From a virus, in the IMG/VR virus record IMGVR_UViG_3300045988_167643: a stretch of DNA of 64,000 nucleotides. One strand, 5' to 3'. The notes under the pieces were generated by a model. It had not been told where the DNA came from, did not search any database, and worked only from the letters and a program-made list of their open reading frames with translations. Positions 34,501 to 49,627 of the stretch are shown here, one piece after another. The position numbers and the translations under genes are program-made. Each line of letters begins with the position of its first letter. Position 1 is the stretch's first letter.

Positions 34501-37500
34501 TATATACCTTAGTAGATTTTTTTACCTTTTCAGTATTGTCATTTACGGTGTCTGTATTTTTCTTAACAGAAATTGTATTTTTATCGGTAATTGTGGAATT
34601 AGAGGGAGATGACTGATTACCTTTATTTAAACCAAAGCTATTGCCACCACCTTTTGGTGATCCGTCTAAGAATGCACTCATTCCACTATGAACCGTTCCA
34701 CCAGCAAGTGCTCTAGCATGTCCACCTCCAGACATGACACGTCCTGAATTTATAAGTTCAGATGTTTGTTTTGAATTAAAGATAATATCGCCCTTTTTTA
34801 AATTCTCAAAATGAGCACCACCAGGAATTACCATCCATTTTCCGTCACGTACAATTGACTCCGGACCATCAGGAAGCTCATTTACAAGAGCTTTTTCATT
34901 ACTTTGTAATGCTACGTTTCCATCTGCATGAGCAGGAGAGTAGTTAAGAACATTATAAGCTGTACCAGAAGCGTGTGCTACACGGAGCATAGTACCAGAA
35001 GCAAATCCACCACCAGTTCCACCAGAATTATTTTTAACATTTGTAGTTACATTTGCGGTGACATTAACTGAATGTGGTTTGTTTAATTCAGCTTGTATTG
35101 TGCTTACCATAGAAGAAATATTTGCACCAACATTGATATTCGCAGTCTTATTATTAATTTCTTCTACTGCTGCATTAGCCGCTGAAATTGCAGGTCCTTT
35201 ATTACCATCAATTTTCATTTCAGGCTTTTGATTTTCTGCGTATTTTTTAGCTTCATCAACACTTTTTTTGTATGGAGTATTATTCCCATCAATAGGTATA
35301 CTTGATTGTTCAGTTGCTTGTGATTGTAAATTCTTTGCACTGACTGAAACTGAAAGAGATGGGTTAGAAGATTGCAATTTAGAAACAGTGGAATTAATAA
35401 GACTTAAAGTCTGACGAGATGTATTGTCAAGATTTACACTAACTGTTATCTTTTGAGTATCCTTTGGAAGACCTGCAATTTTATCAAGAAATGCATTTGC
35501 ATCCTCTTCATTATCAATATTAAAATGATATGTTAACTGCTGAATACCATCATCAAAAGCACTTAAATCAAGTTTATTAATTGCATCTTGAATTCCTGCA
35601 TCATCTAGTCCTTGAATATCAAACTTCAGAGTCTTTTTAGTCTCATCATCAATGCTATCCAACTCTGCTTTTGCATCATTTACGGCTTTTTGAGCATCAG
35701 ATGTATCTAATCCAAGAGATTTCTGCTTATCTAACTCGTTAACAGCTGTTTGGTAATTTTGAATTGCCGTAATAGCATTTTGAAGATCTGCATTAACACT
35801 ATTTAACTGATCATCTGAAATATTCATTACAGCAGGAGCTTCTAACTCTTGTTTTCTTTCTATAAGAGTCTTTAAAATTGTTTCAGCAGCTGAAATTTTA
35901 TCTGTGTTGACATCAATATCAGAACTCTCTCTAAGACCTTGCAAATACTTTGAAAGATCAGATATTTCACTATCCAGATCATCCCCTGTTGCGGAAAGAT
36001 TTATTTCAACATCTGGTTCTATAGTGTCGATCTGTTCTTCCAACGAGGTAATATTACCATCAACATCAATAATAAGATGATAATCTTTTGCAAAAGAGTC
36101 TAATTGCTTTTGAAGCACTTCTTTTAACTGGACATCATCTGTATTATTGATATCATCTATCATTGTCTTGGCAACAGATTTAGCATAATCTGTCTGCTCT
36201 TTAGTATATTTACCTTTCTTATCAACAAGCTCATCCATGTTGGCATTTGCATTTTTGATCCGCTCTTCGAATTCTGCAATTTTCCTTTCAGATTCAGAGA
36301 GAGCAGTATCATAGTCCTCGGTGTTCGGATTTGCTTTTATCTGAGCAAGATGCATTTTTTCAGCTGCTAATTTACTATATAAGTCAGAAATTTTCTCCGT
36401 ACCGGCTTCTTCAGTTGTAAAGAAATCATTATAGAAACCATAGTCTTCAAGTTTTCCGAAAACAGACATAAGAGGTTCAAACCCAATTCCAAGTTTGTCT
36501 GCAGTTTCTTTAAGCTCCTCCATATTATTTCCAAGAGAATAAGTCCAGTTACCATTTTCTTGTTCGGCCAATCCAAGAGCCTGAAGATCATTAAGGAAAT
36601 TGATACATCCATCAGAACCTTCAGTAAAATATTTCTCGATCTTTGACATATTTTCTGCAAAATTTGCATAGTCATCTGATCCAGTAGGAGAGAACATTGC
36701 GGCTGTGGTCTTGAAATCATCCGTTCCAACCAAACCTTTTTCATATGCTTCTTTAGCAGTATTATACATGGAAAGCATATCATCATAGGTCGCTCCTCCA
36801 TTCTCAGTAGAAGAAGCATCTTTTGCAGCTTCATATTGTGGAGTTGGAATTTTTAAACCAGCAATTTTTTTATATGCTCCCTCAATGTCGTGAGCACCGG
36901 CAATTACATCATCGACATATTTTTGAAGAGCATCTGCGTTTGCATCTTCACCGGCATCTCGTAAAGCCTCTATAGCATCTGTAAACTGGTTAGTTACATC
37001 ACTGTCCATAGAATCCATCAGATCATCAATAGCAGAAGAGAGGTCTTCTGTATTTCCTGCATATTTTGCAAGATCTGGGAATTTATCCAGGAATGTCTTT
37101 CTTGTAGAACCAGTCATAAGACCGTTCTTTAGATCTTTTTGAGCTTGATAGAGTGACTGATATTTATCCTGATAATCTGTGAGCTGGGATTGGATTGTTT
37201 CATTATTAATAAAATCTGCTGTAGTTGGAAGAAAATTCTGAATTTCTTTTCCCCAATCGAATCCAGTAGAAGTGATATTTCCAATATTCTGTTCGACCGC
37301 TTTAAGCATTGCTTGGGCGCCTGTGTCAGATGTCATATAGCTTGAATAAGAATTGATAAATCCTTTTGCCATATTTTCTGCAACTGTCTGTGGCGCAGAG
37401 CTATAAGCATTTTTGAACAGTTTTTCTATTTCCTGCTTCGCTGTAGCAGCATCAATATCAGACAAATCAGCTTCTTTCAGAATGCTTCCTTTAAGAGCTT

Positions 37501-39685
37501 TAGCATATTCCATCTCTTCTTTAGAAGCACCAACCATCGCATCATCTATTTTTTTTATACTATCTGTTACTTTAGATACTTTGAGGTTTGAAATAGATTT
37601 CTGTAAATCGTCTGTACCAGAAGCTAGTTGTGGAAACTGTTGAATAAGGTCAGTGAGATCTGAATCTTTAAACTCGCCTGTTTTAAGCTTTGTAAGAGTA
37701 TCTGATAAAGAAGAAATATCTGACTGCAAAGAATCAATAGAAGATGAGATTTCATTATCAGAATCGCCAAGAATTGATGAGAGAGTAGGACCATCTGTGG
37801 ATTCTGCTACCGTTTTCTTATATCTTTCAATGGCAGAAACTAATCCATCTGTGCCTTTCTCAATATCAACTGAACCATTATCAATTAACTGTGCAGCAAT
37901 TGACAGATCGCCTGTCTGCATCTGGTCAATAAAATCACTGGCATTTGGAAAATCTGCATATGCTTCTTTAAGACGTTCTGCGTTATCTTCCATGTCCTCA
38001 ATAGATGAATCAATACCATAAGCATTCTTGAACCGCTCCTGGAGTTCTTTCTTTTCCTCTGTGTCATTTCCAAAAGCATCTTTAAATGCTTCATCAACTT
38101 GCGACCTGTATTCATCAATAGTTAATTTAGAAGGATCAATTTGTAGTGCTTTTGCAAGACTTTCTTGTACATCCGTACTAAACTGAGACATTGGCCCAAG
38201 AAATTCACCATACAGAAAATCAAGTACCTGTCCTTTATATTCACCATCAGGATCATTTAATGCAGTTAAATCAAGATTTGAAATATTAGCCAGAAATGCA
38301 CTCTGAAGACTATCATCAAGCTCATTAAATGATTTTGATGTCTGAAGATAATTTCCAAGTGATTGAGCCATGCTACGCCATTGATCTTCAATCATTAAGT
38401 CATAGGAATTAATTTCGCTCTGAAGTTGACTTCTCTGAGATTCCAATGTTAAATAATAGGATTCCATACCAGCTGTAATCTGTTCATTCATCCTATCTAT
38501 TTCTTGTTTTGACTTGTCAGCAAGACCTTCAGCATAGAAATTCCAGATGCTTCCGTCATCACCAGTATTCTCTTTGTATAATCCGTTCTCTTTTAGAACA
38601 TCAGTAATAACATTTTCTTTATCGCCATACAAATTCTGAACTTCAAAATTGTTACTTCCATATGTTAAAATACTACGTTTGTTCTCAGAAATATCAATAT
38701 CTAGTTGAGCTAGTTCATCACGTTTTTTCTGAATATCTTCCGCATATTGACTTGTCTGTGTAACAACACCATCATATGTTGCTTGTAGATTTTTCCCCAT
38801 ATCAACATTTGCAGAAGAAACTTGTGCCTCATATAAGTTACGAATACTATCAGCAGCCTTATCTGCATTGGAAGCAAGGTTTAATACAGCATTTCCCTGA
38901 CTATCGTAACCTGCTACCAGACCAGGAAACTGAGAGGCAAGCTTACTACTGAGATCAATATATTGCTGATACTCGTCTGTAGATAATGATACATTCTCGT
39001 TTGTATTCTGATTTACTCCCTTACGAAGCTCTACATATTTTTCGGCAACTTGATCGATTGCATCACCGGTATTTTTTATTTGTTCTGTCTGATCACCGAA
39101 TGAAGATCCAAGGTCCATGATGGACTGCTTACCTTCTTCGAAGCTTTTGAATGTGCTGTCAATAGAATCCTTTGCTTCCTGTCCAGCTTTGATGATATTT
39201 TCGCTACGATGTCTATAATCATCTATGGCTTCAAATACTTTGCCAATAGCCCAGGATGCAGCCATAGCTATTGCCATATTGCCAAGAGTTCCAACAAATG
39301 TCTTTGCGACATTACCTGCGGTTTTTAAAGCAGCGCCAAATTTTGTTGTACCTTGTATAACTGTTTGCTGAGATTGAGCAAAATTGGCTAAATTTTGAGA
39401 TCCTAATTCTGTATTAGAATTATATTCAATTAATTTATTATTGCCTTCATCTAACTCATTAGCCCATGTTGAAGCCAGATTTTTATATTCATCACTTGAT
39501 AAATCAGCTTCTTTTGGAATATCGTTAATTAATCTTTTAAAATATTCTTGCTCATTATTGGTTGGATTATAATTTTTAACAACATCTTGCTTCTTTGTAA
39601 AAAAGTCTTTAATACTTTCCCAAAATTCAGATAAATTCTTTCCATTATTAAATGTACCCTCAGTTTTATCGTAGTTAAAAATCAA
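31577..39685 (-). CDS. tape-measure protein, distal 2702-aa segment (no credible own start)
   Basis: The frame opens only 5 codons upstream. The sole start candidate is TTG with no SD (AAATAGATTATTTCAATTTG). It contains a post-core hydrophobic segment (FGAALKTAGNVAKTFVGTLGNMAIAMAASWAIG), kilobases of coiled coil, and two ...NE(L/N)...GPE/GME-type motifs (ALVNELPDGPESIV; RVNENGMESVL). Confidence 0.85.
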   Translation of the reverse strand: MIFNYDKTEGTFNNGKNLSEFWESIKDFFTKKQDVVKNYNPTNNEQEYFKRLINDIPKEADLSSDEYKNLASTWANELDEGNNKLIEYNSNTELGSQNLANFAQSQQTVIQGTTKFGAALKTAGNVAKTFVGTLGNMAIAMAASWAIGKVFEAIDDYRHRSENIIKAGQEAKDSIDSTFKSFEEGKQSIMDLGSSFGDQTEQIKNTGDAIDQVAEKYVELRKGVNQNTNENVSLSTDEYQQYIDLSSKLASQFPGLVAGYDSQGNAVLNLASNADKAADSIRNLYEAQVSSANVDMGKNLQATYDGVVTQTSQYAEDIQKKRDELAQLDIDISENKRSILTYGSNNFEVQNLYGDKENVITDVLKENGLYKENTGDDGSIWNFYAEGLADKSKQEIDRMNEQITAGMESYYLTLESQRSQLQSEINSYDLMIEDQWRSMAQSLGNYLQTSKSFNELDDSLQSAFLANISNLDLTALNDPDGEYKGQVLDFLYGEFLGPMSQFSTDVQESLAKALQIDPSKLTIDEYRSQVDEAFKDAFGNDTEEKKELQERFKNAYGIDSSIEDMEDNAERLKEAYADFPNASDFIDQMQTGDLSIAAQLIDNGSVDIEKGTDGLVSAIERYKKTVAESTDGPTLSSILGDSDNEISSSIDSLQSDISSLSDTLTKLKTGEFKDSDLTDLIQQFPQLASGTDDLQKSISNLKVSKVTDSIKKIDDAMVGASKEEMEYAKALKGSILKEADLSDIDAATAKQEIEKLFKNAYSSAPQTVAENMAKGFINSYSSYMTSDTGAQAMLKAVEQNIGNITSTGFDWGKEIQNFLPTTADFINNETIQSQLTDYQDKYQSLYQAQKDLKNGLMTGSTRKTFLDKFPDLAKYAGNTEDLSSAIDDLMDSMDSDVTNQFTDAIEALRDAGEDANADALQKYVDDVIAGAHDIEGAYKKIAGLKIPTPQYEAAKDASSTENGGATYDDMLSMYNTAKEAYEKGLVGTDDFKTTAAMFSPTGSDDYANFAENMSKIEKYFTEGSDGCINFLNDLQALGLAEQENGNWTYSLGNNMEELKETADKLGIGFEPLMSVFGKLEDYGFYNDFFTTEEAGTEKISDLYSKLAAEKMHLAQIKANPNTEDYDTALSESERKIAEFEERIKNANANMDELVDKKGKYTKEQTDYAKSVAKTMIDDINNTDDVQLKEVLQKQLDSFAKDYHLIIDVDGNITSLEEQIDTIEPDVEINLSATGDDLDSEISDLSKYLQGLRESSDIDVNTDKISAAETILKTLIERKQELEAPAVMNISDDQLNSVNADLQNAITAIQNYQTAVNELDKQKSLGLDTSDAQKAVNDAKAELDSIDDETKKTLKFDIQGLDDAGIQDAINKLDLSAFDDGIQQLTYHFNIDNEEDANAFLDKIAGLPKDTQKITVSVNLDNTSRQTLSLINSTVSKLQSSNPSLSVSVSAKNLQSQATEQSSIPIDGNNTPYKKSVDEAKKYAENQKPEMKIDGNKGPAISAANAAVEEINNKTANINVGANISSMVSTIQAELNKPHSVNVTANVTTNVKNNSGGTGGGFASGTMLRVAHASGTAYNVLNYSPAHADGNVALQSNEKALVNELPDGPESIVRDGKWMVIPGGAHFENLKKGDIIFNSKQTSELINSGRVMSGGGHARALAGGTVHSGMSAFLDGSPKGGGNSFGLNKGNQSSPSNSTITDKNTISVKKNTDTVNDNTEKVKKSTKVYNWVETRIKHWSDQVQKIADKITDYIKKSLKTSLLKQQIRKMNYEIGSNQKGAKTYMKKANSIANEYTYYNSDGEEIKTNVPKKYQKLVQKGAYRIEDMDTSTDQGKALAEAIDQYKTYYDKAQDCKQAVVDLKKEQMELFEQWANMPTETAEQKLERLQNGFNGLNATQSRLSAVQTGGSTQKAIADAATASYESAQVVTEKAQSNLDTATAKADKATTAVNRKKKALLKSKGLTNEQKKAIKSGKTIDTSKITNKTTKKRAEEYNSAVKNKKKADSKKKTAQTKFNTANKNSSSLKTDAETAIAGYQEGNELSYMDSLTDQNVTQTKQAADINNKAWEETKKNLNAQEKAKKQADDKVSKKAKAIKKKFGSKLSDNQKKKLAAGKEINVDKIKDKSLKKALTAYNKYVTTAAETEQKLNIVTDAESTAAANAAESQTEAAKATVEAIQSKFDNAKTYYEGLLGYQEKYNEMEEANIDLYNAHGNYERSSDYEIKISNTESLRNIAQDKVDELEKRLQEGVDNGTIVEGSQEWINMKSEIIEAKKAVTDYDTSIENLKQQQIGVYYEEQFDRAIEKIDQFKDRLDTLNEIISDDMKVDKNTGLLTELGATSVMLNRNQFSANQKEIQKLLEKENDVKKRYANGEDMSSEFGEKTYDEYIKDIQSKYNSLISSNSSLQNDMLSLVKNQAQAELDALNKVISKRKEALSAKKDYYDYDKTLKDKTKDIQILERQAAALQGSTNAEDKARLAKIQEQLSDAREDLSDTMTDHAFSMQSDALDKLSSDMSDDFDKWSNDISSNVEKMSKAINEAVSNSALSNAQVLNNLSTILKNVGLTDEQVSSTLSGLTGYASGTDYVPKSGMYRVNENGMESVLSRKYGTLTFLNQGDKIFTADFTKRLIDNAGIATQSSQPQFGEMYKELMNAITNTNNQSYEHSTVYNIVVNEATDANAVGDIVVKKIDAYEKKRVRDFKSLR
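39664..39678. repeat. 15-nt inverted-repeat arm (TTTTATCGTAGTTAA) inside first codons of distal TMP segment
   Basis: It is the perfect reverse complement of 47220..47234. The RNA duplex is extendable to 17 bp with one G-U. Confidence 0.9.
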
Positions 39686-39692
39686 ATTGAAA
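39685..39692. repeat. 8-bp direct repeat AATTGAAA (island left junction)
   Basis: Identical to 47240..47247. Both copies read xT-TTC-AAT-Tx (Phe-Asn) in the same codon phase on the minus strand. Confidence 0.85.
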
Positions 39693-39747
39693 TAATCTAT
39701 TTATAATGTTATACTTGCAATATAAAATTATAAATTGGAGGGTGATT

Positions 39748-40275
39748 ATGAAGATTTATTGCTGTCGTAATTGTATGGAGAAAAACAGAAGCAAGATTAA
39801 AAGCGACAAAGATTATTTTAACTCATTACTTAAATATAAAACCTTTGAAGCAGAAAAAGAATATTTTGTAGGATTTGGACTAGAAAACAAAGTTAAAGAC
39901 GGTAAATGTATATTTTGCAACTCTCCAGTAGAACTTTTAAATATTGAGGATGGTGAATTGGCAAAAATATCACACTTTGGATCTCCAAATCCAGATTATG
40001 TTCTTGCTATGAATAAACTTAAAGGCGATGATATTATTTCATTTACTTCAAAATATAATGAATTAATTGAGATTCAAAATCAAAGAAAAGCAATGAATTT
40101 AGCGCAACAACAGTCCGAGCAACAAAATATAAACCAAGTACGTTGTCCTAAATGTGGATCTACCCAGATCACCACAGGACAGAGAGGATACAGTTTATTC
40201 TCTGGCTTTTTAGGTAGCAGCAAGACCGTTAATCGTTGTGCGGCTTGTGGACATACTTGGAAGCCTGGAAGGTGA
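39748..40275 (+). CDS. double zinc-ribbon protein (Zn-ribbon cassette copy 1 in frame)
   Basis: RBS GGAGGGTGATTATG. The N-terminus has CCRNC...CIFC. The C-terminus is [40 protein letters not shown]. Confidence 0.75.
40135..40275 (+). repeat. 141-nt Zn-ribbon cassette, copy 1 (in frame)
   Basis: It has the same length and the same [13 protein letters not shown]...NRCAxCG pattern as 41186..41326, 43280..43420 and 44153..44293. Confidence 0.9.
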
Positions 40276-40485
40276 CTATAAATAGTTCTTTCGATCATCA
40301 AGAATATCAAACAGTTCTTGAATGTTTTTTTCAAATTCTATAAAGCTTAGATACTTTTGATGATTGAATATTCTATAGTATGCTTTTTGGATTTTAAATT
40401 TTATATTGCGAATTGCCATTTTTGCATCCAAATAAAAAACATTTACTCTTAATTTTAGAAGTAATAAAGTTTTATTTTGTTTCAT
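40276..40485 (-). CDS. small protein, family C (~69 aa), divergent partner of HExxH gene
   Basis: RBS GAAAGGA. It shares K(K/A)YY(R/K)IF(N/D)xxKY...EK(D/N)(I/M)Q(E/D)...D(D/E)R with 42104..42316 and 42344..42550. Confidence 0.65.
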   Translation of the reverse strand: MKQNKTLLLLKLRVNVFYLDAKMAIRNIKFKIQKAYYRIFNHQKYLSFIEFEKNIQELFDILDDRKNYL

Positions 40486-40518
40486 ATAAATAAAATCCTT
40501 TCGTATAAGTAAATAAAT

Positions 40519-41202
40519 ATGAATAAAGAATATATAGAAAATTTATTTAAAGAATACAATAATAATTATTTTAAAATACCAGAAATACAGCAATATATCG
40601 AAATACAAGATAATTATGTAGCTGGTAAATTTAATAGTGTAGATTTATACAATCAAATATATACATTAGAAATAAGTAATAATTTAAATGAGTCTGATGG
40701 AAGCAAAGCAATATTATTCCATGAATTTACTCATGTATATGATTCGTTACAATTTCTAAAATATCCATTTGAAGATTACAAAAAATTAATGTATGTATAT
40801 TCGGAAGTACATGCTTCTGAAGTAGAAATGGATGTGTATTTAAAAATATCAAACTTTCATTATGAAAAATATATGCAATTACAATTAAGAGACCTAATAG
40901 AAAGCTTTATTTTGCCAGATGGTCCTATTGTCAAAGGACAGCTAGGATTTAATGAAAGACTTCTATATTATTACATTGGTTATCTTGTATCATTAAATAA
41001 TCATAATATTAAGTATGAATATAAATATGATTATATTAATGAAGATTTTCAAAATCTGTTTATGGAAATTACAGATTACTTTATTCAAAACAATACATAT
41101 AATTATGATATCTTATTAACTTACTATGATAGATTGAGTAAACTTGTAAAAGATACATTAATAAAACATCAAAAAAAATACAAATCAAGTTCGTTGCCCT
41201 AA
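40519..41202 (+). CDS. HExxH metallopeptidase-like protein, copy 1
   Basis: Contains [12 protein letters not shown] (HExxH) and [11 protein letters not shown]. It is roughly half-identical by eye to 42580..43266. It ends 17 nt into the +1-frame Zn-ribbon cassette. Confidence 0.65.
41171..41178 (+). repeat. A8 homopolymer at HExxH/Zn-ribbon junction
   Basis: The sequence reads CATC-AAAAAAAA-TAC. Loss of one A fuses the HExxH ORF to the Zn-ribbon (…[16 protein letters not shown]…). Confidence 0.9.
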
Positions 41203-41326
41203 ATGCGGTTCCACACAAATCACCACAGGTCAACGTGGATACTCATTATTCTCTGGTTTCCTTGGCTCAAATAAGACAGTCAACAGATGTGCGAATTGCG
41301 GATATTCTTGGAAACCTGGAAAATAA
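41186..41326 (+). other. Zn-ribbon cassette copy 2, +1 frame relative to upstream ORF, no own start codon
   Basis: It encodes [46 protein letters not shown]. Against copy 1, 22 codons differ synonymously and 5 non-synonymously. Its frame opens at 41165 with no ATG, GTG or TTG. Confidence 0.8.
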
Positions 41327-41338
41327 GGAGAGTATAAT

Positions 41339-41890
41339 ATGAGTATTATACTGGCTGCTATTTCAAAAAATAATGATATTGCTGTATGCTCCGATGGAAG
41401 AGCAACTGATAGTAATGGAAAAGTTGTAGGAGAGTATGAGCAAAAAATATATAAAATTAATAAGAAATGTATAATTGGTGGGACTGGAACTGCTGCTAAA
41501 TATCTAAAATTAAAAGATTATGTTAAAGATAATTTTTCATCAGACCAATACAATGTGAATCAAATCCACGACTCATGCATTAAGTATTTAGAAAAAAATA
41601 AATCTGACGAATCAGATGTACATATTCTTATTACTGGGTATGATGAAGAATGTAATCCACACTTGTATGTAATATCTGTATCCAGTACTATTTCATCTCG
41701 CGATTACAATGATATAAAAAGAACTATATTAGGCGATGTATTTTGCAATTATATACTTAATGAAACCGAAGATGACATCAATAAAATTTTAGATTCCATG
41801 GAAGAATGCATTATTAATAGAGCAATGTTTCATTTTTTAATTAACAAAAATGTTAGTAAATTGCATCTTTTGGCAAAGGATGTTCGATGA
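41339..41890 (+). CDS. HslV/CodW-like Ntn-hydrolase homologue, copy 2
   Basis: RBS AAGGAGAG. The N-terminus MSIILAAISKNNDIAVCSDGRATDSNGKVVGEYEQKIYKINKKCIIGGTGTA follows the HslV pattern. It is a paralogue of 30570..31112. Confidence 0.55.
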   Translation: MSIILAAISKNNDIAVCSDGRATDSNGKVVGEYEQKIYKINKKCIIGGTGTAAKYLKLKDYVKDNFSSDQYNVNQIHDSCIKYLEKNKSDESDVHILITGYDEECNPHLYVISVSSTISSRDYNDIKRTILGDVFCNYILNETEDDINKILDSMEECIINRAMFHFLINKNVSKLHLLAKDVR

Positions 41891-42053
41891 GTCTTTTTTC
41901 AGGAACAAAAAATGATTCAATAGTTTCTTTTACTACAATTGGTTTAAGTGGAATATATTTATTACAAGTGACTGATTCTTGTCCATCGTTATCAGATACT
42001 GATATTTTGTGCGAATCAATAAATATGTCACAATCAAAAATTTTAGCATGCAT
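41853..42053 (-). CDS. small protein, family B, convergent and overlapping with Ntn-hydrolase gene
   Basis: The start was refined to MHAKIFDCDIFIDSHK (RBS AGAAGGT). It overlaps 41339..41890 by 38 nt. Its 5' 53 nt are about 92% identical to 44883..44935. Confidence 0.6.
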   Translation of the reverse strand: MHAKIFDCDIFIDSHKISVSDNDGQESVTCNKYIPLKPIVVKETIESFFVPEKRLIEHPLPKDAIY

Positions 42054-42103
42054 TGTCATACCTTCTTTCTATATATTGTAGAATAAGTGGAACAAGTAAA
42101 TAA

Positions 42104-42316
42104 CTATAATCTATTCATACGTTCATCGTATTCATTAAATATTTCTTTGATGTCTTTTTCGAATGCACAAAGTTTTTCGTATTTGGAATAATTGAAAATT
42201 TTATAGTATGCCTTTTTTACCTGTAAAATGAAATTTTTCTTTTTCATATTTAAAGAAAGTAATAATGCGTCTATTTTTAAGAGTATTAATGAATGCTGTT
42301 TTATTTGTTTTTTCAT
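42104..42316 (-). CDS. small protein, family C paralogue
   Basis: The start was refined to MKKQIKQ (RBS AAAGGA). It carries the family C motif KKAYYKIFNYSKY...EKDIKEIF...DER. Confidence 0.6.
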   Translation of the reverse strand: MKKQIKQHSLILLKIDALLLSLNMKKKNFILQVKKAYYKIFNYSKYEKLCAFEKDIKEIFNEYDERMNRL

Positions 42317-42343
42317 AGAACATCCTTTCATAAGAAAAGTAAT

Positions 42344-42550
42344 TTACACCCATTTCATTCTGTCGTCAATAGCATCCAGGACATCTTGCATATCTTTTTC
42401 TATCTGCAGGAGGTCCTGGTACTTTTGATTATCAAAAATGCGATAATACTTTTTTTGAATTGCAAATTTTATATCTAATTTTAGATTTTTTAATTTTATG
42501 AACAGTATATCACGTTTTAATCTAATAATTAGCATTTTGTTTTTTATCAT
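42344..42550 (-). CDS. small protein, family C paralogue, divergent partner of HExxH gene
   Basis: RBS GAAAGGAATTATTATG. Only 29 nt separate it from the divergent 42580 start. Confidence 0.65.
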   Translation of the reverse strand: MIKNKMLIIRLKRDILFIKLKNLKLDIKFAIQKKYYRIFDNQKYQDLLQIEKDMQDVLDAIDDRMKWV

Positions 42551-42579
42551 AATAATTCCTTTCTATTGCAGGAGATAAA

Positions 42580-43266
42580 ATGGACAAAGAGTATCTTGAT
42601 AAAATATTTAAGGAATATAATGAGTTATATTATGAAATTCCAGAAATACAAGAATATATTGAAGTTGACAAAGGAGATTGTGCAGCCGCACAATTCAATA
42701 CATTGGAATTGTATAATCAAAAATATATACTAAAAGTCAACAAGCAATTAGATAAATCAAAAATATACAAAGGAATTTTCTTTCACGAGTTCACACATGT
42801 ATATGATTCTACTCAGTTATTAAATTATCCGCTTGAAAATTTTATTAAATTAATGTACATATATTCTGAAGTTCACGCTTCAGAAGTTGAAATGGATATA
42901 CATTTAAAAATAGAAAATTTCTCATATAAAAAATATGTAGATAAAGGAATAGTAAATTTAACTGAGAGTTTTATATTACCAAATAATCCTATTTTAAAAG
43001 GTGAGGTATATTGTGACGAAAGACTTTTATATTATTGTATTGGATATTTGACATCACTTAAAAAGCATAATATCGAATATGTTTATAGTTATAAGTATGT
43101 ACCAGATGTGTTTCGTTCATTATTTATAGAGATAACGGAATATTTTTTGTCAACAACAAAATATAATTATAATGTATTGCTTAATTATCAAATTAAATTA
43201 CATGATTTAGTCAAGACTACAATAAAGGAACATATAGAAAAATATAATAAACCTAATACAAATTAA
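42580..43266 (+). CDS. HExxH metallopeptidase-like protein, copy 2
   Basis: RBS GCAGGAGATAAAATG. Contains [12 protein letters not shown] and [11 protein letters not shown]. Confidence 0.65.
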   Translation: MDKEYLDKIFKEYNELYYEIPEIQEYIEVDKGDCAAAQFNTLELYNQKYILKVNKQLDKSKIYKGIFFHEFTHVYDSTQLLNYPLENFIKLMYIYSEVHASEVEMDIHLKIENFSYKKYVDKGIVNLTESFILPNNPILKGEVYCDERLLYYCIGYLTSLKKHNIEYVYSYKYVPDVFRSLFIEITEYFLSTTKYNYNVLLNYQIKLHDLVKTTIKEHIEKYNKPNTN

Positions 43267-43279
43267 TACAAAAACCAAT

Positions 43280-43420
43280 ACTGTTCACTGTCCTCGCTGC
43301 GGTAGCACACAGATCACTACAGGGCAGAGAGGTTATTCCTTTTTAACTGGTTTCTTAGGTTCCAATAAAGCTGTTAATAGATGCGCAAAATGTGGACATA
43401 CTTTGGAACCGAGAGGGTAA
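43280..43420 (+). other. Zn-ribbon cassette copy 3, +1 frame relative to upstream ORF, no own start codon
   Basis: It encodes [46 protein letters not shown]. Its frame is open from 43238 without a start codon. The junction contains the tandem AATACAAA-tt-AATACAAA. Confidence 0.75.
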
Positions 43421-43421
43421 T

Positions 43422-43691
43422 TTATTTAATACCATGTTCTTCCAAAAACTCATCAGCTATTTGACTAGAAACTTGTTTTATAATTTGAGTAAGATTACCA
43501 TGAACGTCAATTTCCGGCATCTTACCAGTTGTTTCGAATTTAATAATGTCATCAATTGACATATTCTTAAAATGATTTCGCACTAATGTAAATGTGGTTT
43601 CAATATCACCTTCATCAGTACAATTATTTTCGTATAACAATTTAATAATTTTTGTTGCAATATTTTCTGTCTCAGAAATTGACCACAACAT
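43422..43691 (-). CDS. hypothetical 89-aa acidic protein, divergent partner of 43723..44154
   Basis: RBS AGAAAGGTCGTG. Its start lies 31 nt from the divergent gene's start. Confidence 0.6.
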   Translation of the reverse strand: MLWSISETENIATKIIKLLYENNCTDEGDIETTFTLVRNHFKNMSIDDIIKFETTGKMPEIDVHGNLTQIIKQVSSQIADEFLEEHGIK

Positions 43692-43722
43692 ATTTTCACG
43701 ACCTTTCTATGGAGGATTGAAT

Positions 43723-44154
43723 ATGATATTAAACTATGATTGTTTTAGAGATGTACTCTTATATATTGAAGAACAAGATAATATGAAGCTTAATGGAGAT
43801 TTCAAGCGGATTATGTTAAAAGATATAAAGGATCACTTTTCAGGCAAATACACTGAAGAGGATGTACAATATTGTGTGAAAAACTTATTTGACGGAAGAT
43901 TCTTAGAAGGATTGTATTCTATAGATGATAACTATAAATATGAAAACTGTAAAATTTATGATGTTACATTCGAAGGACATAAATTAGCAGAATCAATTAG
44001 ACCTGACTCTATATGGAGGAAGAGTAAAGCTAAATTAAAATCTGTAGGTATTTCTTCTATAAATATGATCTCAGCAGTATGTGTAGAAGTTGCTAAAGTA
44101 GCTGTTACTGATCCTAAATTTATTACCGATATTGCCAATGGAATATTTAAATAA
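43723..44154 (+). CDS. DUF2513-like (winged-helix-like) protein
   Basis: RBS GGAGGATTGAATATG. The N-terminus MILNYDCFRDVLLYIEEQ...F resembles the remembered DUF2513 family. The track start at 43594 lies inside the divergent gene. Confidence 0.5.
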   Translation: MILNYDCFRDVLLYIEEQDNMKLNGDFKRIMLKDIKDHFSGKYTEEDVQYCVKNLFDGRFLEGLYSIDDNYKYENCKIYDVTFEGHKLAESIRPDSIWRKSKAKLKSVGISSINMISAVCVEVAKVAVTDPKFITDIANGIFK

Positions 44155-44293
44155 AGTTCACTGTCCTCGCTGTGGCTCAACGCAAATTACCACAGGTCAA
44201 ACCTTGCAAAGAGCATTGTTTAGCTTAATGTATAATCAGATTACTGTCAATCGATGCGCAAATTGTGGGTGCACTTGGAGACAAGGAATATAA
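44138..44293 (+). CDS. Zn-ribbon cassette copy 4 as possible 51-aa stand-alone ORF (+1 frame, overlaps upstream stop)
   Basis: An ATG at 44138 lies in the cassette frame but has no SD. It encodes [51 protein letters not shown]. The central loop has diverged. Confidence 0.45.
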   Translation: MEYLNKVHCPRCGSTQITTGQTLQRALFSLMYNQITVNRCANCGCTWRQGI

Positions 44294-44307
44294 GGAGATT
44301 ATATAAT

Positions 44308-44466
44308 ATGGAAGAAAACATATTTGATAAGTTTAAAAATGTGGTTCGTAAGCCGAAACCAGAACCAACTAAGCCAAAGGCAACTAAAATTTCTGATATT
44401 AATTTAGAAAAGAATAAACGAGAAATTTTTACTCTCCATGACGAAAAAGATAAAAACAAGAAGTAA
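44308..44466 (+). CDS. 52-aa Lys/Pro-rich peptide
   Basis: RBS TAAGGAGATTATATAATATG. The sequence is highly basic and low-complexity. Confidence 0.5.
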   Translation: MEENIFDKFKNVVRKPKPEPTKPKATKISDINLEKNKREIFTLHDEKDKNKK

Positions 44467-44607
44467 TACATTTTTTTAAAAAATCTATTGTTTTTATATA
44501 TGGCGTAAAGAAAAGTTCAATAGCATGGGGAAATGGATCTGGAACTTCTCTAAACAATTCTATATCTTTTATTTTTAAATCTTCTGTGTCATTAGGAGGT
44601 GTATTTA

Positions 44608-44808
44608 GTGAACTCAAATTTCGATTCAAAAGAATCATTCCTTTCTTATAAGTTAAATATTTTTAAAGAATTGTATAATGATGAATGTGAAAGAAGAAAC
44701 ATTGCTTCACAAAAAATTTCAAGAATTATTCCATTAATTGTGGCAATGTTTGGTGGTGACACCAATATTTTTCAAAAGCTTTTTCTGGCAACAGATAATC
44801 CTCTATGA
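44608..44808 (+). CDS. 66-aa ORF, possibly a truncated N-terminal fragment
   Basis: A GTG lies 8 nt after AGGAGG. It ends inside the convergent gene 44726..44935, in the position the Ntn-hydrolase gene occupies in the paralogous module. Confidence 0.35.
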   Translation: MNSNFDSKESFLSYKLNIFKELYNDECERRNIASQKISRIIPLIVAMFGGDTNIFQKLFLATDNPL

Positions 44809-44935
44809 CTTCCTTGACAAAGAAAGTAGGCAAGGGAGTATTAAAAGATTTTTCACTAGATCCACCACGAGAATCGTTTATTGATATTTTGTGTGAATCA
44901 ATAAATATGTCGCAATCAAAAATTTTTACATGCAT
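44726..44935 (-). CDS. small protein, family B paralogue
   Basis: The start was refined to MHVKIFDCDIFIDSHK (RBS GAAGGTGAAG). Confidence 0.6.
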   Translation of the reverse strand: MHVKIFDCDIFIDSHKISINDSRGGSSEKSFNTPLPTFFVKEVIEDYLLPEKAFEKYWCHHQTLPQLME

Positions 44936-44983
44936 AAAAATCTTCACCTTCTTTTTTTATTTAATTAATAGACCAAGAGAGTA

Positions 44984-45331
44984 TTAGTGCTCTTGGTCTG
45001 ATTCTTCATGCTTGGTCCATGCTAATGTATAAGTTTTTAACCAAAAGTAATCTTTACCGAAATCACCATCAGACCGATATATATCAAATTCATTTATATT
45101 ATAAATACCTAATGTCTCATACATGGCATCACGGTATGTCTTATAAGATCCAAGAACCTTATTATCATCTTTTCTTATTACTAGATAACAATCTCCGTAT
45201 TTTTCAAATAATTCTTTCTCGTGGTCTGTAAAATAGCAGTGGGCTTTACCATCTCGATCTGTTGACATATTAGTATAATTAAAGAAATCTTTATCTTCAA
45301 ATATAACAGTTCCTCTTTGTATTAATTTCAT
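44984..45331 (-). CDS. small protein, family A paralogue
   Basis: RBS AAAGGAGT. FEKYGDCYLVIRKDDNKVLGSYKTYRDAMYETL aligns with the family A members. Confidence 0.65.
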   Translation of the reverse strand: MKLIQRGTVIFEDKDFFNYTNMSTDRDGKAHCYFTDHEKELFEKYGDCYLVIRKDDNKVLGSYKTYRDAMYETLGIYNINEFDIYRSDGDFGKDYFWLKTYTLAWTKHEESDQEH

Positions 45332-45375
45332 TTAATAATACTCCTTTTTAATCATAATAATAGACCAGGAGAGTG

Positions 45376-45846
45376 TTAATTCTCCTGGTCTAAATTATCA
45401 TATTCATTTAAGAAATTTGCTGTTCCAAAAGATGGGATTCTAAATGAAAAACTTGTTTTTCCATTTAAATTTGATACTGCAAAATCACCTTTTGAAATAA
45501 TATCCATACCAATAATAATATCAAAAACATCATGTTTTTCAATTTTTAATACTCGCAAGTTATTAAAAACAAAATCGTCTCTAAACATTAAATCAATTGA
45601 ATAAATATTTGTTAATTTTGACTCACGATGACCTCCAGTATAGAAATTTGATTTTCCAGTTGAAGTAAGATTATATTTTTCCACTATATTGCTTGTTATA
45701 CATGAGACAGAAGCACCTGTGTCCCAAATACAAATAAAGCGATTTTTATCAATTAAATCATCTTTCTCTTTTCCTACATAAACATAGGAAGTAAGTTGAT
45801 TCATTATCTTATTTGAACTATATGTAAGAACTCGTATTTTATCCAT
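45376..45846 (-). CDS. retropepsin-like aspartic protease, copy 2
   Basis: Contains IWDTGASVSCIT, IIGMDIISKGDFAVSN and FSFRIPS. Its start lies 4 nt after the upstream family A gene's stop. Confidence 0.75.
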   Translation of the reverse strand: MDKIRVLTYSSNKIMNQLTSYVYVGKEKDDLIDKNRFICIWDTGASVSCITSNIVEKYNLTSTGKSNFYTGGHRESKLTNIYSIDLMFRDDFVFNNLRVLKIEKHDVFDIIIGMDIISKGDFAVSNLNGKTSFSFRIPSFGTANFLNEYDNLDQEN

Positions 45847-45849
45847 ATC

Positions 45850-46140
45850 TTATTCACTTATAGAAATCCATTTATATTCTGGTATGCGAACATATTTTCT
45901 ATTAAAAACACCATCACAATGATATATATTAAATTCACCTACATCATAATAGAAAAGTGTTTCTCTTAATGCTTCTCTATATGTTTTATATGATCCAATG
46001 ATAATATTATCTAATTTTCTAATAGACAGATAACATTCTCCATATTTTTTATATAATTCTTCATGATGATAATAAAACCAATCTGTAGGATGATTTGGAA
46101 TTTCTACAATTTCCCCTTCATAATAATGTATTTTTCCCAT
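45850..46140 (-). CDS. small protein, family A paralogue
   Basis: The start was refined to MGKIHYYEG after AAGAGGTG. Contains YKKYGECYLSIRKLDNIIIGSYKTYREALRETL. Confidence 0.65.
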   Translation of the reverse strand: MGKIHYYEGEIVEIPNHPTDWFYYHHEELYKKYGECYLSIRKLDNIIIGSYKTYREALRETLFYYDVGEFNIYHCDGVFNRKYVRIPEYKWISISE

Positions 46141-46187
46141 ATTAAATTTCACCTCTTATCATATCATATAATGGATTAATTTCAATC

Positions 46188-46224
46188 TATATAAATAAAA
46201 GCACCACGTTTGCAAGCCGTGGTG
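46188..46224 (-). terminator. rho-independent terminator ending the ORF-poor RNA region
   Basis: On the minus strand, CACCACG-gcttgcaaa-CGTGGTG is followed by CTTTTATTTAT. Confidence 0.7.
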
Positions 46225-46681
46225 AGTGTGTGCAGTTAGTGCATTTCAGGTAGTAGGAGAGTAGTAACCTCACGGTTCTATCCATACTATTCGATCCATC
46301 ATGCTACCCAGGCTTTCCCTGGTTGGACTGTATATTGTACTATATGTTGTAACGCCACACATAATACGCCTTGTCAGCCTCTCGCACGTTAACTGTAAAA
46401 CTACACTTTTACATGAAAACACATATGTTCTGGATTTACAAAAATGGACAATTATACTACAATCGAAGTCAGATAAACTTGTGATCACAGTTCTACATTG
46501 TGATTCGTTGCACGACAGTATATCTGACAATCGTCATGTAGTATTGAATTAATGGTACGCAATTTGTACCAGAAATGAGATTATCTAAAATGAAGCATTC
46601 TAAATATTATATTCATTTCTATGGGATTCTCCCAACATCAAATCTCTTTCTTGATACTTTCGTACAGGAAGGAGGTGAGAT

Positions 46682-46855
46682 ATGGAAGATGTATTTCTAT
46701 TCGTTTTAACTCTTGTAGGATTATTAATCCTATGGTCGTTAATCCGCAGAATACCATCTAAGAACATGAAAAACTTTCACATCCATTTTGGATTTTTGAA
46801 AGGATTTGACATGTCTGGAGAATTCTATAAGGATGACACCAAAAATAATAAATAG
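46682..46855 (+). CDS. 57-aa hydrophobic-N-terminus peptide (type-I-toxin-like)
   Basis: Strong RBS GGAAGGAGGTGAGATATG. It encodes MEDVFLFVLTLVGLLILWSLIRRIPSK..., a TM helix followed by a charged tail. Its own terminator lies downstream. It is below the ORF-track cutoff. Confidence 0.55.
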   Translation: MEDVFLFVLTLVGLLILWSLIRRIPSKNMKNFHIHFGFLKGFDMSGEFYKDDTKNNK

Positions 46856-46892
46856 TTTAGTTCATATTTTTGTAATCTCCTTTTGTCATTTA

Positions 46893-46945
46893 AGAGAGTG
46901 GAGAGTTGTTAGCGCAACTTTCTGCTCTCTATTTCTTTCTTTCTT
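46893..46945 (+). terminator. rho-independent terminator of the small peptide gene
   Basis: AGAGAG-tg-GAGAGTTG-ttagcg-CAACTTTC-tg-CTCTCT is followed by ATTTCTTTCTTTCTT. Confidence 0.7.
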
Positions 46946-47219
46946 CCTGTTATAATTGCGTTTTATTCGTGAATTTATCATCCACTTTTGTAAATTTAAA
47001 CATATGTGTTTGCTAACGTGTCGGAACTACCATCTTCAATATATCCCTTTCATTCATTTTCAGAACTAAGGTACCACAGTGATGTGGATTACGGCTTCCT
47101 CCGATATTCGGCTTTATAGCTCTAAGGCTAAAGGTCTGTCAATAGGTGTCGAATCACCATCTTGAACAAGTTCTATACTAACTGTCGCGATTATGACAGC
47201 AGCATATCAAATGGGCATC

Positions 47220-47234
47220 TTAACTACGATAAAA
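47220..47234. repeat. 15-nt inverted-repeat arm (TTAACTACGATAAAA) at island right end
   Basis: It is the reverse complement of 39664..39678. It supplies the codons FYRS* that terminate the proximal TMP segment. Confidence 0.9.
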
Positions 47235-48053
47235 TTTTGAATTGAAACTAGCTTTATGGTTTATGTTAAGCTGTTTACCCAGACCTGCTTGTGAAAGTTT
47301 AAATCCTGCGAATCCTCCAATTGCTGTTGAGAGCAGTGGAAGTTTATCCAGGATCTGAGTTACGATGTTAAGAAAGGCGGTTGCTGTATCTATTACGCCT
47401 TTAAACATATCTGAGTTGATAGTTACTGTTGCAAGCTCTTGGAGCTGTGTTTGGAGCTTTGTGATATGAGCTTCTAACGAAGATAAATACGTCTCATTTT
47501 CACGATCTGCCGAGCCTTTCGCATTTTTTGATGACTCGATTGCTTCCCTTAAAATATCAGGTGACTGCAATATACTAGCAGCTGTATTTGCGCGGTTTTT
47601 GCCGGCAATTGTTTCAAGCAAAAGATTTACATTGTTACTTTTGGTCTTTTTATCGGTTTCTTCGATCTCATTATAGATATCTGCTATATCCTGTAATACA
47701 CTTGCCGTTGAACGGTAGTTCCCGTTATTATCAAGAATATCTATACCTTTAAAACCATTAGAAGCGACTTTTGTTGCGCTCATAATTACGTCTCTAAGCT
47801 TAGAAACAGTTGTTACAACACCATCTGTCTCTTCGCCAAGTTCTTGCAATTGCTGAACGGCAACGCTTGTTCCTGTTAGACGGAGAGCAATCGTTCTCAT
47901 TGCGGCACCAACGGATTCTGGGTCCTGCACAACCTGGTTGCCTGCCGTAATTAATCCTATACTTTCGTCTATATTATTACCTGCTGTTTTAAGAGCAGAT
48001 GCTGATCTTTGTAATGCTGATGCTAACCCATCGGTGGAGATGGAAAAATTATT
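47220..48053 (-). CDS. tape-measure protein, middle segment (exon 2 of intron-split TP901-type core)
   Basis: It begins NNFSISTDGLASALQRSASALKTAGNNIDESIGLITAGNQVVQDPESVGAAMRTIALRLTG, the hallmark TP901-family core block as remembered from Firmicutes phage TMPs. The track codons MVSRACLESNSL upstream belong to the intron 3' end. Confidence 0.85.
   Translation of the reverse strand, partial: NNFSISTDGLASALQRSASALKTAGNNIDESIGLITAGNQVVQDPESVGAAMRTIALRLTGTSVAVQQLQELGEETDGVVTTVSKLRDVIMSATKVASNGFKGIDILDNNGNYRSTASVLQDIADIYNEIEETDKKTKSNNVNLLLETIAGKNRANTAASILQSPDILREAIESSKNAKGSADRENETYLSSLEAHITKLQTQLQELATVTINSDMFKGVIDTATAFLNIVTQILDKLPLLSTAIGGFAGFKLSQAGLGKQLNINHKASFNSKFYRS
47240..47247. repeat. 8-bp direct repeat AATTGAAA (island right junction)
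   Basis: Identical to 39685..39692 and in the same codon phase. Confidence 0.85.
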
Positions 48054-49627
48054 CAAACTGTTACTTTCGAGACAAGCTCTACTAACCACACAAAATTAGT
48101 ATGGCGCATAGGCATTTCTACCTATGTCTCACGCTTTATATGAATTGGGATTATAACGTGACGATTATACTTAAAAGTATAAAAGAGCCTTTCGGCTGTT
48201 CGGACTAGATCTTCATCCTATAAAATAGGAGAGTAGCGAAACTCTATTTGTTTATTATCCAAATAGAGTATTATGGTCTCTACGGATATATGTAATTAAT
48301 TATTTTATAATATATGTATATTCTTTTCTGTTTAAATCTTGATATGGGGTAATTATATTAGAATTTAAAGAAAGACTAGATTCTGAAATACTATAATTAA
48401 AAGAATGATAATTATTTAATACACCATTACAATTTATATATTCTTGAATTAATTTTTTACATAATTCTTCGTTTTTATTTATATCAGTTTCCCACAAATA
48501 TAAAATTTTTATATCATATTTATTGGTAATATATGATTTCTTTTGCTTATCTTTTATAATTGTTCTGTCTTGTATTGAATTCAAAGTATATTTATTTTCA
48601 TTGTATCTTATTGGGTTACCATGCCAATAATCGCCCATAACCTCTATTATTAAATTAAAATCATTTAAATAATTATCAGCAGCATAATATTCAAATATTT
48701 TCTCGCGTTCATAATTAATCTTTAATTCATCTAATATAGAATTTATTTTTAACTGAATTTTAGAATTTCTTTTATTTGAACGAGCGCTATTTTGGGCAAT
48801 TCTAAGACGTATTTTTTCTTTTTGTTCTGGCGTAAATTTTTTATTAAACATGGGGGATTTTTCTTGAATATAATGTTTAGATTTGAATTCATAATAACAT
48901 TGTCTGGAGCAATAATTGAAATTTTCTCCAAATGAATTGACTTTATTATAATTAGATGGAATAATTGCAAGAGGTTTACCACAATTAGTGCAAAACGTAT
49001 TTATTCTATTATAAAATTGACTTTCCTTACCATGGTCTAATTTATTTGGTTTATCTTTATGATAACATTCATTAGAACAATACGAATGTTTATTTACTAA
49101 ATAAACACTTGGAAAATCTTCAATTTCTTGTCCACAATATTCACAATTGGTTTTTACTAATATTTTTCTACTATGATTCCCTAATTGCTGAACCATTTTA
49201 CAAATATCTTTTAGCGATCTATTCTTATACATACTTTGCAAGGTGTTCAAATAAGGATCGTCTGTTGTTAATAAAAAAGATAATGCTGTTTTTACATCTT
49301 CCTTAGTCCATCCATCAATATTAGGAACAATATTTTTATGACGTTTTAACCAATCACAATAGGCACACGTTCCATTATTTCCATTTTCTTTTAAATTTCT
49401 AATTCTAATAAATCTCTTTTCTAAATTTCTTCCACACACATCACAATGGACTATATGATTCAATGGAATACTATCATATTTTTCTTTACTTCGCATAAAA
49501 CCTCTTTAAATTAATTACATATCTTTCCACGGTCTTGGCTTTCCCATAAGCTATTAACCGTTATAGCTACTTACAGGGAATATAAAAATTCCCCACATGT
49601 TACCATGTGTTTAGGCATAATCATTTC
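48054..49627 (-). mobile_element. group I intron (1574 nt) in the tape-measure gene
   Basis: P1 pairs exon UAGGU (49632-49628) with intron GCCUA (49616-49612), with a U-G wobble at the splice site. P10 pairs intron AUUAU (49621-49617) with 3'-exon AUAAU (48052-48048). The intron ends in G (48054). An S-like element GAAGAUCUAGUCCGAAC lies at 48201-48217. The spliced junction reads VNQVG|NNFSIS. Confidence 0.8.
48300..49496 (-). CDS. intron-encoded homing endonuclease, Zn-finger N-terminal half + PD-(D/E)XK (Vsr/EDxHD-like) C-terminal domain
   Basis: It has multiple CxxC pairs (CDVCGR, CAYCDW, CEYCGQ, CTNCGK). The C-terminus has LIIEVMGDYWHGNP...D..KD...KILYLWE, a Vsr/DUF559-like pattern. It lies wholly within the intron. 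Confidence 0.7.
   Translation of the reverse strand: MRSKEKYDSIPLNHIVHCDVCGRNLEKRFIRIRNLKENGNNGTCAYCDWLKRHKNIVPNIDGWTKEDVKTALSFLLTTDDPYLNTLQSMYKNRSLKDICKMVQQLGNHSRKILVKTNCEYCGQEIEDFPSVYLVNKHSYCSNECYHKDKPNKLDHGKESQFYNRINTFCTNCGKPLAIIPSNYNKVNSFGENFNYCSRQCYYEFKSKHYIQEKSPMFNKKFTPEQKEKIRLRIAQNSARSNKRNSKIQLKINSILDELKINYEREKIFEYYAADNYLNDFNLIIEVMGDYWHGNPIRYNENKYTLNSIQDRTIIKDKQKKSYITNKYDIKILYLWETDINKNEELCKKLIQEYINCNGVLNNYHSFNYSISESSLSLNSNIITPYQDLNRKEYTYIIK

Follow-up and report, generated by a model that had tools for sequence, protein, structure and literature searches.

The window analysed here is a stretch of 64,000 nucleotides from the IMG/VR virus record IMGVR_UViG_3300045988_167643, in which all structural genes lie on the minus strand. 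The phage is a large SPbeta/Sundance-like siphophage of human-gut Clostridia, and its nearest isolated relatives, Brevibacillus phage Sundance, Enterocloster PMBT24 and the C. difficile LIBA phages, are about 30% identical. Its tape-measure protein (TMP) gene is found in three open reading frame (ORF) pieces on the minus strand (51319-49571, 48089-47220 and 39685-31577), and this analysis concerns the 7.6-kb island between the last two, which contribute exons 2 and 3, and above all the structured kilobase that follows exon 2. The unsplit Sundance TMP aligns on either side of this island, its residues 849-1083 matching 48053-47301 and its residues 1097-1241 matching 39340-38834 (its alignment to exon 3 starts at 39340), which indicates that one ancestral gene spans the island. 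A distant IMG/VR relative, L015, likewise has a continuous TMP of 4068 aa that crosses the junction, as the Sundance protein does.

A previous sequence-only reading described the kilobase after exon 2 as a GC-rich, ORF-poor structured RNA with motifs resembling the R and S elements of group I introns. The strings it quoted are all present where it placed them, and the block is indeed richer in GC than the adjacent island (0.35-0.39 versus 0.24-0.30). ORFs preceded by a Shine-Dalgarno (SD) sequence number zero on the minus strand of the block, but the description as ORF-poor does not extend to the plus strand, where an SD, a 57-aa ORF and a terminator had been overlooked. The block (47300-46194) is present in a single copy in each of 14 IMG/VR contigs and about 17 contigs from human-gut metagenomes, as it is in one Hadza-gut Clostridia metagenome-assembled genome (MAG). 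In every case TMP exon 2 comes immediately before it and its end is at about 46194; the sequence beyond differs by contig, and over the 16 arrangements, or cargo sets, the predicted intron measures 2453-7925 nt. The block is 92-100% identical across contigs and 77% in L008/L042, although identity falls to 61-72% in the exon 2 protein and to 47-50% at the exon 3 N-terminus. The core segments of L008 share 88-96% identity with those of the window, against about 58% for the DNA of the ORF inside the block and 48% for the protein at the exon 3 N-terminus. Megablast and blastn searches of the block against GenBank phages gave no match, and exact-pattern scans of IMG/VR and GTDB genomes returned the same family only, plus one Hadza gut Clostridia MAG.

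A compact homologous intron was found in L043, a human-gut metagenome contig (ODAI012395556.1) whose exon 2 is 54% identical to that of the window. After the homologous Gly codon, L043 carries a structured segment of 230 nt and then a GmrSD_N/DUF262 ORF, after which the TMP resumes with MFNYNK. When the structured segment was scanned alone, Rfam Intron_gpI matched it over the full model with 26.3 bits (E 6e-5; gathering score 50). Three colinear identities join this segment to the window (Table 1). The spacing from R to S is similar, 36 nt in L043 versus 33 nt in the window, whereas identities 1 and 2 are 43 nt apart in L043 and 719 nt apart in the window, from which we conclude that the window core is split by an insertion. 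The two elements have homologous P3, J3/4, P4, P7, P3′, J8/7 and P9, and the exon sequence around them agrees as well (G|(I/M)FNY); L043 differs in its P6, a plain hairpin of 6 bp, in the single sense-strand ORF placed after P9, and in its total length of about 1.36 kb. We also observed that the TMP exon of L043 (27-806) contains in-frame TAG where its relatives have Gln (e.g., NQVL*DP versus NQVVQDP), which suggests, from the sequence, that this phage may read TAG as Gln.

Using the homology with L043 and the Rfam alignment, helices P1 to P9 can be drawn on the minus strand of the window from 47281 to 46308; all of them lie within the first 1.09 kb of the intron. The conserved helices P3-P4-P5-P6 and P7-P3′-P8-P7′-P9 appear in canonical order together with the P, Q, R and S elements, and the 12-nt identity with L043 in the P3/J3/4/P4 stretch lies under the P element of the Rfam alignment. 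The layout is of the IA type, as in the Clostridial IStrons discussed below. The U-run that follows the last hairpin of the block is missing in L008. An alternative 5′ arm for P3, GCCUU (47128-24), was discarded because it is disrupted by uncompensated variants in L004, L008 and L016.

This fold changes the assignment of several motifs. The sequence proposed as R, UUCGACACCUAUUG (47153-47140), falls in the loop and 3′ arm of the peripheral hairpin GGUG/CACC, whose arms have changed together to GAUG/CAUC in L008, and the first proposed S, UUGAAGAUGGUAGUUCCGAC (47039-47020), corresponds to the 3′ arm of P5, J5/4 and P4′ (the Q element). The pairing of 47153 with 47039 as R and S was therefore abandoned, since P7 cannot form there and both motifs sit in other helices; the UGAAGAU..UAGU string said to be shared with two other introns has a different spacing in those introns. 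In contrast, the motif listed as a second S is the true S element, and the true R and S lie at 46385-46326; once the real R (46385-46368) is paired with it, the two bulges that P7 had seemed to need disappear. The hairpins CUGUC/GACAG and CCACA/UGUGG exist as described, and the former stays paired through compensatory changes in the 77%-identical L008, whereas CCGA-aua-UCGG, also read as a hairpin, instead matches P3, J3/4 and P4 of the L043 intron. The terminator proposed at the end of the block does consist of a 7-bp hairpin and a U-run (46224-46190), but with a loop of 9 nt it was passed over by a terminator scanner.

Compensatory changes were found in the core helices. Over 20 distinct variants, 98% of the cells of P1 to P9 are paired and 8 pairs show double compensatory changes, compared with 0-1 compensated pairs in slid controls. 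In the P7-P9 domain the paired fraction reaches 99.4%, and 5 pairs have changed on both sides, versus 0 in slid registers; the covariation score of this domain was reached by none of 500 shuffles. Several G.U pairs point to the minus strand as the one that folds. In addition, a covariance model built from the P7-P9 domain of the window family only (R1) matched positions 948-1029 of L043 (E 9e-4), which is the R-S region of that intron, with no further hit in 126 kb.

The 5′ splice site is predicted to lie between 47277 and 47276, after UGGGU, which places the start of the intron at 47276; the start at 47240 proposed previously is 37 nt too far downstream. The guide sequence UUAAGAU-GCCCA is invariant. 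Its GCCCA pairs with the exon end UGGGU, leaving U47277 opposite G47216, and L043 retains AUGCCCA of this guide. The adjacent AAGAU (47221-47217) can form P10 with AUUUU of the 3′ exon (39682-39678); the partner is AUCUU or GUCUU in relatives, which keeps the pairing, and in L043 both sides covary (internal guide sequence ACAU, exon AUGU). The locus thus has both the U.G pair in P1 and the guide that also pairs with the 3′ exon, as in group I introns. The G directly before exon 3 (G39683 in the window) is conserved in all 16 arrangements, and so is the reading frame. The junction GGU|AUU falls on a codon boundary and is in frame (...AGLG|IFNYDK), with a predicted spliced RNA ...GCAGGUCUGGGU|AU(U/C)UUUAACUACGAU and a predicted junction peptide ...SQAGLGIFNYDK.

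The reading frame of exon 2 continues for 18 codons after 47277 (stop at 47220). In relatives this tail contains indels of 7 nt and 20 nt, with indels that are not multiples of three from 47264 onward, which argues that the tail is intronic and not coding. A 5′ splice site after CAGCUU (47268) was rejected, as it lacks the U.G pair and its bases occupy a hairpin loop in L008. On the other side of the island, a purine-rich SD ahead of exon 3 is found in none of the 16 arrangements, while most true starts on the minus strand have one; together with the divergent plus-strand promoter adjacent to it, this would make an independent start of exon 3 difficult. The conserved 23-mer that precedes exon 3 was considered as an RNA pairing element, but it is better explained by the extended −10 of that promoter.

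Table 1. Features of the interrupted tape-measure locus in the 64,000-nt window (positions are those of the window).
Feature	Position	Strand	Description
TMP exon 2	47277-48053	-	Ends ...CUG GGU; Pfam PhageMin_Tail match; Sundance and PMBT24 TMPs align at 48053-47301
P1	47281-47277 with 47216-47212	-	UGGGU with GCCCA; U.G at predicted splice site; paired in 20/20 variants
P1 element overall	47212-47281	-	Encloses variable P1-extension hairpin; indels fall in the loop of this hairpin
P2	47200-47195 with 47186-47181	-	3-4 compensatory pairs
Two peripheral hairpins	47173-47164 and 47158-47145	-	GGUG/CACC: one compensatory pair
P3	47112-47110 with 46370-46368	-	GCC with GGC (P3′); 3 bp
J3/4		-	GAAUAU, between P3 5′ arm and P4
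P4	47103-47099 with 47026-47022	-	CGGAG with UUCCG; encloses extended P5; G.U to A-U in L008
P6	47020-47012 with 46393-46385	-	CACGUUAGC with GUUAACGUG; 9 bp, all paired in 18/20 variants
L6 insert	47011-46394		618 nt, in the loop of P6; splits the core
Antisense mini-gene	46671-46930	+	SD GGAGGTG 46671-46677; 57-aa ORF 46682-46855; intrinsic 17-bp terminator 46893-46930
Catalytic 3′ domain	46308-46385	-	J6/7, P7, P3′, P8, J8/7, P7′, P9
P7	46379-46375 with 46330-46326	-	GGCUG with CAGUC
P8	46367-46337	-	11 bp; J8/7 is AAUAUA
P9	46322-46308	-	CCAGG-GAAAG-CCUGG; GAAAG loop
Distal P9 extensions	46190-46307	-	End in CACCACG/CGUGGUG (46224-46202), then U-run; block ends here in every relative
L043-window identity 1	47112-47101		GCCGAAUAUCGG; colinear
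L043-window identity 2	46382-46368		AGAG(A/G)CUGACAAGGC; colinear
L043-window identity 3	46335-46325		AUAUACAGUCC; colinear
Cargo	39729-46189	both	Accessory genes (Pfam); content differs among 16 arrangements
Asp-protease-like protein	45376-45846	-	Pfam
HslV/proteasome-like protein	41339-41890	+	Pfam
Zn-ribbon protein	39748-40275	+	Pfam
Promoter facing into island	TTGAAA 39687-92; TGnTATACT 39707-15	+	Spacing 17 nt; drives cargo genes including 39748-40275
Intron 3′ end	39683-39728	-	Terminal G at 39683; conserved G and conserved 23-mer in all loci
TMP exon 3	31577-39682	-	Starts AUU UUU AAC UAC; homology from first codon in all loci

What the sequences show is the fold, its covariation, the homology with an Rfam-recognised group I intron that interrupts the same codon position, the complementarity at the splice sites and the conserved frame. 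Given these sequence features, the flagged kilobase is probably the catalytic core of a 7594-nt group I intron in the TMP gene, with 47276 and 39683 as its first and last bases on the minus strand and the island as its cargo. The complete covarying core, the L043 homology and the guide that pairs with both exons thus favour the proposal of the sequence-only reading, an intron-borne island formed when accessory genes invaded the 3′ peripheral part of a group I intron. The other group I introns of the same phage (50.3 bits at 58912-59211) provide a context that favours this explanation too. According to this model, late transcription would run through the whole island and the 5′ core would fold, after which guanosine would attack after U47277, held as the U.G pair in P1. 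The guide sequence would then align the remote 3′ exon through P10 beside the terminal G39683, and in-frame ligation of the exons (...AGLG|IFNYDK...) would give a single TMP of about 3500 aa. We infer the catalysis itself, the read-through of the terminator-like hairpin and of the convergent units, and the use of the distant 3′ site.

Several observations weigh against this explanation. The terminator-like hairpin with its U-run at the end of the core, and the convergent plus-strand units that precede the 3′ site, should lower the amount of full-length precursor. An in-frame TTG or ATG opens exon 3 in every locus, which would allow independent initiation, and a search for the spliced-junction peptide found split exon-2 proteins only, with no close unsplit relative that would confirm the exact junction. 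P1 of L043 is weak at the position that keeps the frame, and P3, with only 3 bp, is mismatched in L004. Diversity is low, most copies being 92-100% identical, and because of this the covariation comes mainly from the L008/L042 and L041 lineages. The splicing is a prediction from sequence. Finally, Rfam RF00028 did not match the window core, either in the whole window at gathering score or in 38-52 kb and 46150-47300 at E<=10, so the core is supported by Rfam solely through L043, indirectly. This last negative is uninformative: the model cannot span the 618-nt insert, and the intron with a LAGLIDADG endonuclease gene elsewhere in the window was also missed by the whole-window gathering scan, being seen only when the short stretch 58780-59260 was scanned.

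The start codon of exon 3, the terminator-like hairpin that closes the core and the convergent transcription units of the cargo would also fit the main rival, in which the intron is a relic: the core is real or was recently active, the cargo blocks splicing, and the tail is built from two TMP polypeptides, with exon 3 translated from the TTG/ATG at 39685. We consider this unlikely. Exon 3 lacks an SD in 16 of 16 arrangements and has no evident minus-strand promoter ahead of it; the core is better conserved than the flanking coding sequence; the P10 complementarity, the terminal G and the frame are all maintained, including the covarying P10 in L043; and the conserved "start codon" is also accounted for by an intron that ends in G. 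The position of the whole catalytic core upstream of the terminator-like hairpin, with the cargo downstream, would also suit splicing in trans, in which the 5′ exon and core are released at the 46190 hairpin and U-run while exon 3, with a short intron tail, is transcribed apart. TATAAT-like hexamers are present on the minus strand just before exon 3 in most loci; nevertheless, no convincing −35 element accompanies them on that strand, apart from P10 no long stretch of the 3′ tail was found to be complementary to the core, and the 15-20 nt that precede the terminal G vary without covarying partners in the core, which is invariant. To our knowledge, trans-splicing group I introns are known in organelles only, and we regard this arrangement as improbable here.

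The locus might instead hold no intron, the block being a 3′ untranslated region (UTR), a small RNA or a type I toxin-antitoxin-like locus around a plus-strand membrane protein, between two separate genes. Such a locus would fit the short hydrophobic ORF, which is preceded by a strong SD and possibly by a long 5′ UTR, is followed by its own terminator and is fully overlapped by minus-strand transcription, but it leaves unexplained the covarying helices outside the insert, which are minus-strand-specific by their G.U pairs, as well as the Rfam-recognised group I homologue at the same codon and the P1/P10 guide. Moreover, the small gene is confined to the L6 insert, and its antisense relation could coexist with an intron, so we give this possibility very little weight. 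Least probable of all, in our estimation, is that site-specific recombination removes the island from the DNA before late expression and so restores the TMP gene. CTTAAC/TTTAAC-like strings near both ends of the island, its variable cassette-like content and a repeated 150-nt module would be consistent with such excision; against it, Pfam, PHROGs and PADLOC found no recombinase, integrase or transposase among the island ORFs scanned, the smallest islands carry only two or three small genes, and an empty site was seen in none of about 30 contigs.

The plus-strand gene inside the P6 loop encodes a single-pass protein of membrane type with an N-terminal hydrophobic helix. Its ORF is kept at 58 aa in L008/L042, where the protein is about 45% identical and the DNA about 58%. 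Pfam, PHROGs and PADLOC gave no family match, and the protein database holds close relatives only. Compared with a type I toxin-antitoxin system, the gene has a transmembrane peptide of 57 aa that is fully overlapped by the intron strand, and no family match. We noted that the excised intron would be wholly antisense to the mRNA of this peptide. In the roughly 200 nt upstream of the gene (46395-46600), the window and the L008 lineage reach 88-96% identity, far above the ORF, and a promoter candidate is present in the L6 insert (TTTACA, 17 nt, TACAAT; 46435-46463). This segment may be a structured 5′ UTR with its promoter, or an extension of P6.

The cargo consists of self-contained transcription units on both strands that are exchanged between related phages. 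The minimal cargo is the Zn-ribbon and HslV/proteasome-like proteins, encoded on the strand antisense to the intron. The window adds, besides the Asp-protease-like protein, a DUF2513 protein, two HExxH proteins, whose genes are each partnered by a small divergent one, and others. Pfam, PHROGs and PADLOC gave no function for most cargo proteins, and PADLOC matched none of them. Among the island ORFs scanned (not every small ORF), these databases revealed no recombinase, integrase, transposase or TnpB, and no nuclease domain that would mark a homing endonuclease. A promoter-like site (TTGAAA, 16 nt, TGnTATGAT; 46185-46158) follows directly after the hairpin of the intron core.

Repeated elements were observed in the cargo. 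A 150-nt module is present in four plus-strand copies (40121-40270, 41172-41321, 43266-43415 and 44139-44288) with 60-75% DNA identity, each encoding a complete Zn-ribbon peptide of some 45 aa, V(R/H)CP(K/R)...NRCA.CG..W..G*, that ends at a stop codon. The first copy is the C-terminus of the 39748-40275 gene, and copies 2-4 are in the +1 frame with respect to the ORF before them, at whose stop they start, copy 2 at an A7 run; these modules could represent fusions made by frameshifting, or joints at which recombination exchanges cassettes. The minus strand also has three small ORFs that are paralogues of one another, 68-75 aa long (...KAYYRIFN.QKY...), at 40276-40485, 42104-42331 and 42344-42550. 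ORFs of this group lie divergently beside the two HExxH proteins, which are paralogues of 227-228 aa (HEFTHVYDS; 40519-41202 and 42580-43266, plus strand). The pairs look like repeated two-gene modules, without a PADLOC or Pfam match. Finally, two paralogous minus-strand proteins of 100 and 115 aa (...YGDCYL.IRK.DN...GSYKTYR.A..ETL...), at 45850-46152 and 44984-45331, flank the Asp-protease-like gene.

The TMP gene has an earlier interruption of about 1.5 kb (49590-48090, minus strand) that contains a Cys-rich ORF of 398 aa (48300-49496) with weak zf-FCS/TRASH matches only. An R-like motif, CCGUAGAGACC, and an S-like motif, AAGAUCUAGUCC (48198-48217), stand on either side of this ORF. Rfam gave no match for the interruption, which from its sequence is probably another group I intron. 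Outside the TMP gene, a genuine group I intron is located at 59211-57839 on the minus strand, where Rfam Intron_gpI scores 50.3 bits over 58912-59211; it is followed by a LAGLIDADG_3 endonuclease ORF with helix-turn-helix domains (57839-58810).

As to what the arrangement means, we put about even confidence in the idea that the intron acts as a portable "safe harbour", a self-splicing unit of up to about 8 kb in an essential tail gene that carries interchangeable, independently transcribed cassettes on both strands, one of them in the P6 loop. In this view, splicing would tie TMP production to how the cargo is being expressed, possibly with antisense transcription or read-through of the hairpin as the gate. 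Group I introns of bacteria and phages have been viewed as small (less than about 1.5 kb) with at most one homing endonuclease, to which the IStrons added transposase cargo. If the element described here splices, a group I intron can accommodate an unrelated cargo of 6.5 kb together with convergent transcription and a 3′ splice site that lies far away, and phages can hide a hypervariable accessory island in an essential gene at zero coding cost. It would also affect the annotation of gut phages, where hundreds of contigs carry "split" tape-measure genes, and would offer a natural system for the study of long-range 3′ splice-site selection by a group I ribozyme.

Among known systems, the phage introns whose peripheral loop contains an ORF (T4 td, nrdB and nrdD/sunY; Twort orf142) resemble the window element, given its predicted splicing, in being self-splicing introns in a phage structural gene. 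As in the window element, the insertion of T4 td is in L6 and the core of sunY is far from the 3′ splice junction. Those introns, like the tail and TMP gene introns named next, differ in being about 0.25-1.5 kb long with at most one sense-strand homing endonuclease gene, whereas the window family measures 2.5-7.9 kb and has several genes, no recognised endonuclease and one antisense gene in L6. Group I introns in tail or TMP genes were already known from prophages of the B. cereus group and from Cluster J mycobacteriophages (PMC2504315, PMC3706429).

The architecture that appears closest is that of the Clostridial IStrons, chimeras of a group I intron and an IS605 or IS607 element such as CdISt1 (PMC10690162). 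These also have the core at the 5′ end, cargo other than a homing endonuclease after it, a 3′ splice site beyond the cargo and Clostridia as hosts, and splicing restores the ORF that they interrupt, as predicted for the window element (PMC10690162). Unlike them, the window element has no TnpA or TnpB among the island ORFs scanned, no omega-RNA and no transposon ends; it is present in one copy per genome, always at a single TMP site, and the cargo of its family, which reaches 6.5 kb, is made of unrelated genes that lie on both strands, have promoters and terminators of their own and vary among relatives. In this last respect, the cargo recalls phage morons and accessory hot spots, which are also promoter-gene-terminator units that vary between otherwise similar phages; morons, however, are found between genes, whereas here the hot spot would lie inside an intron in an essential structural gene.

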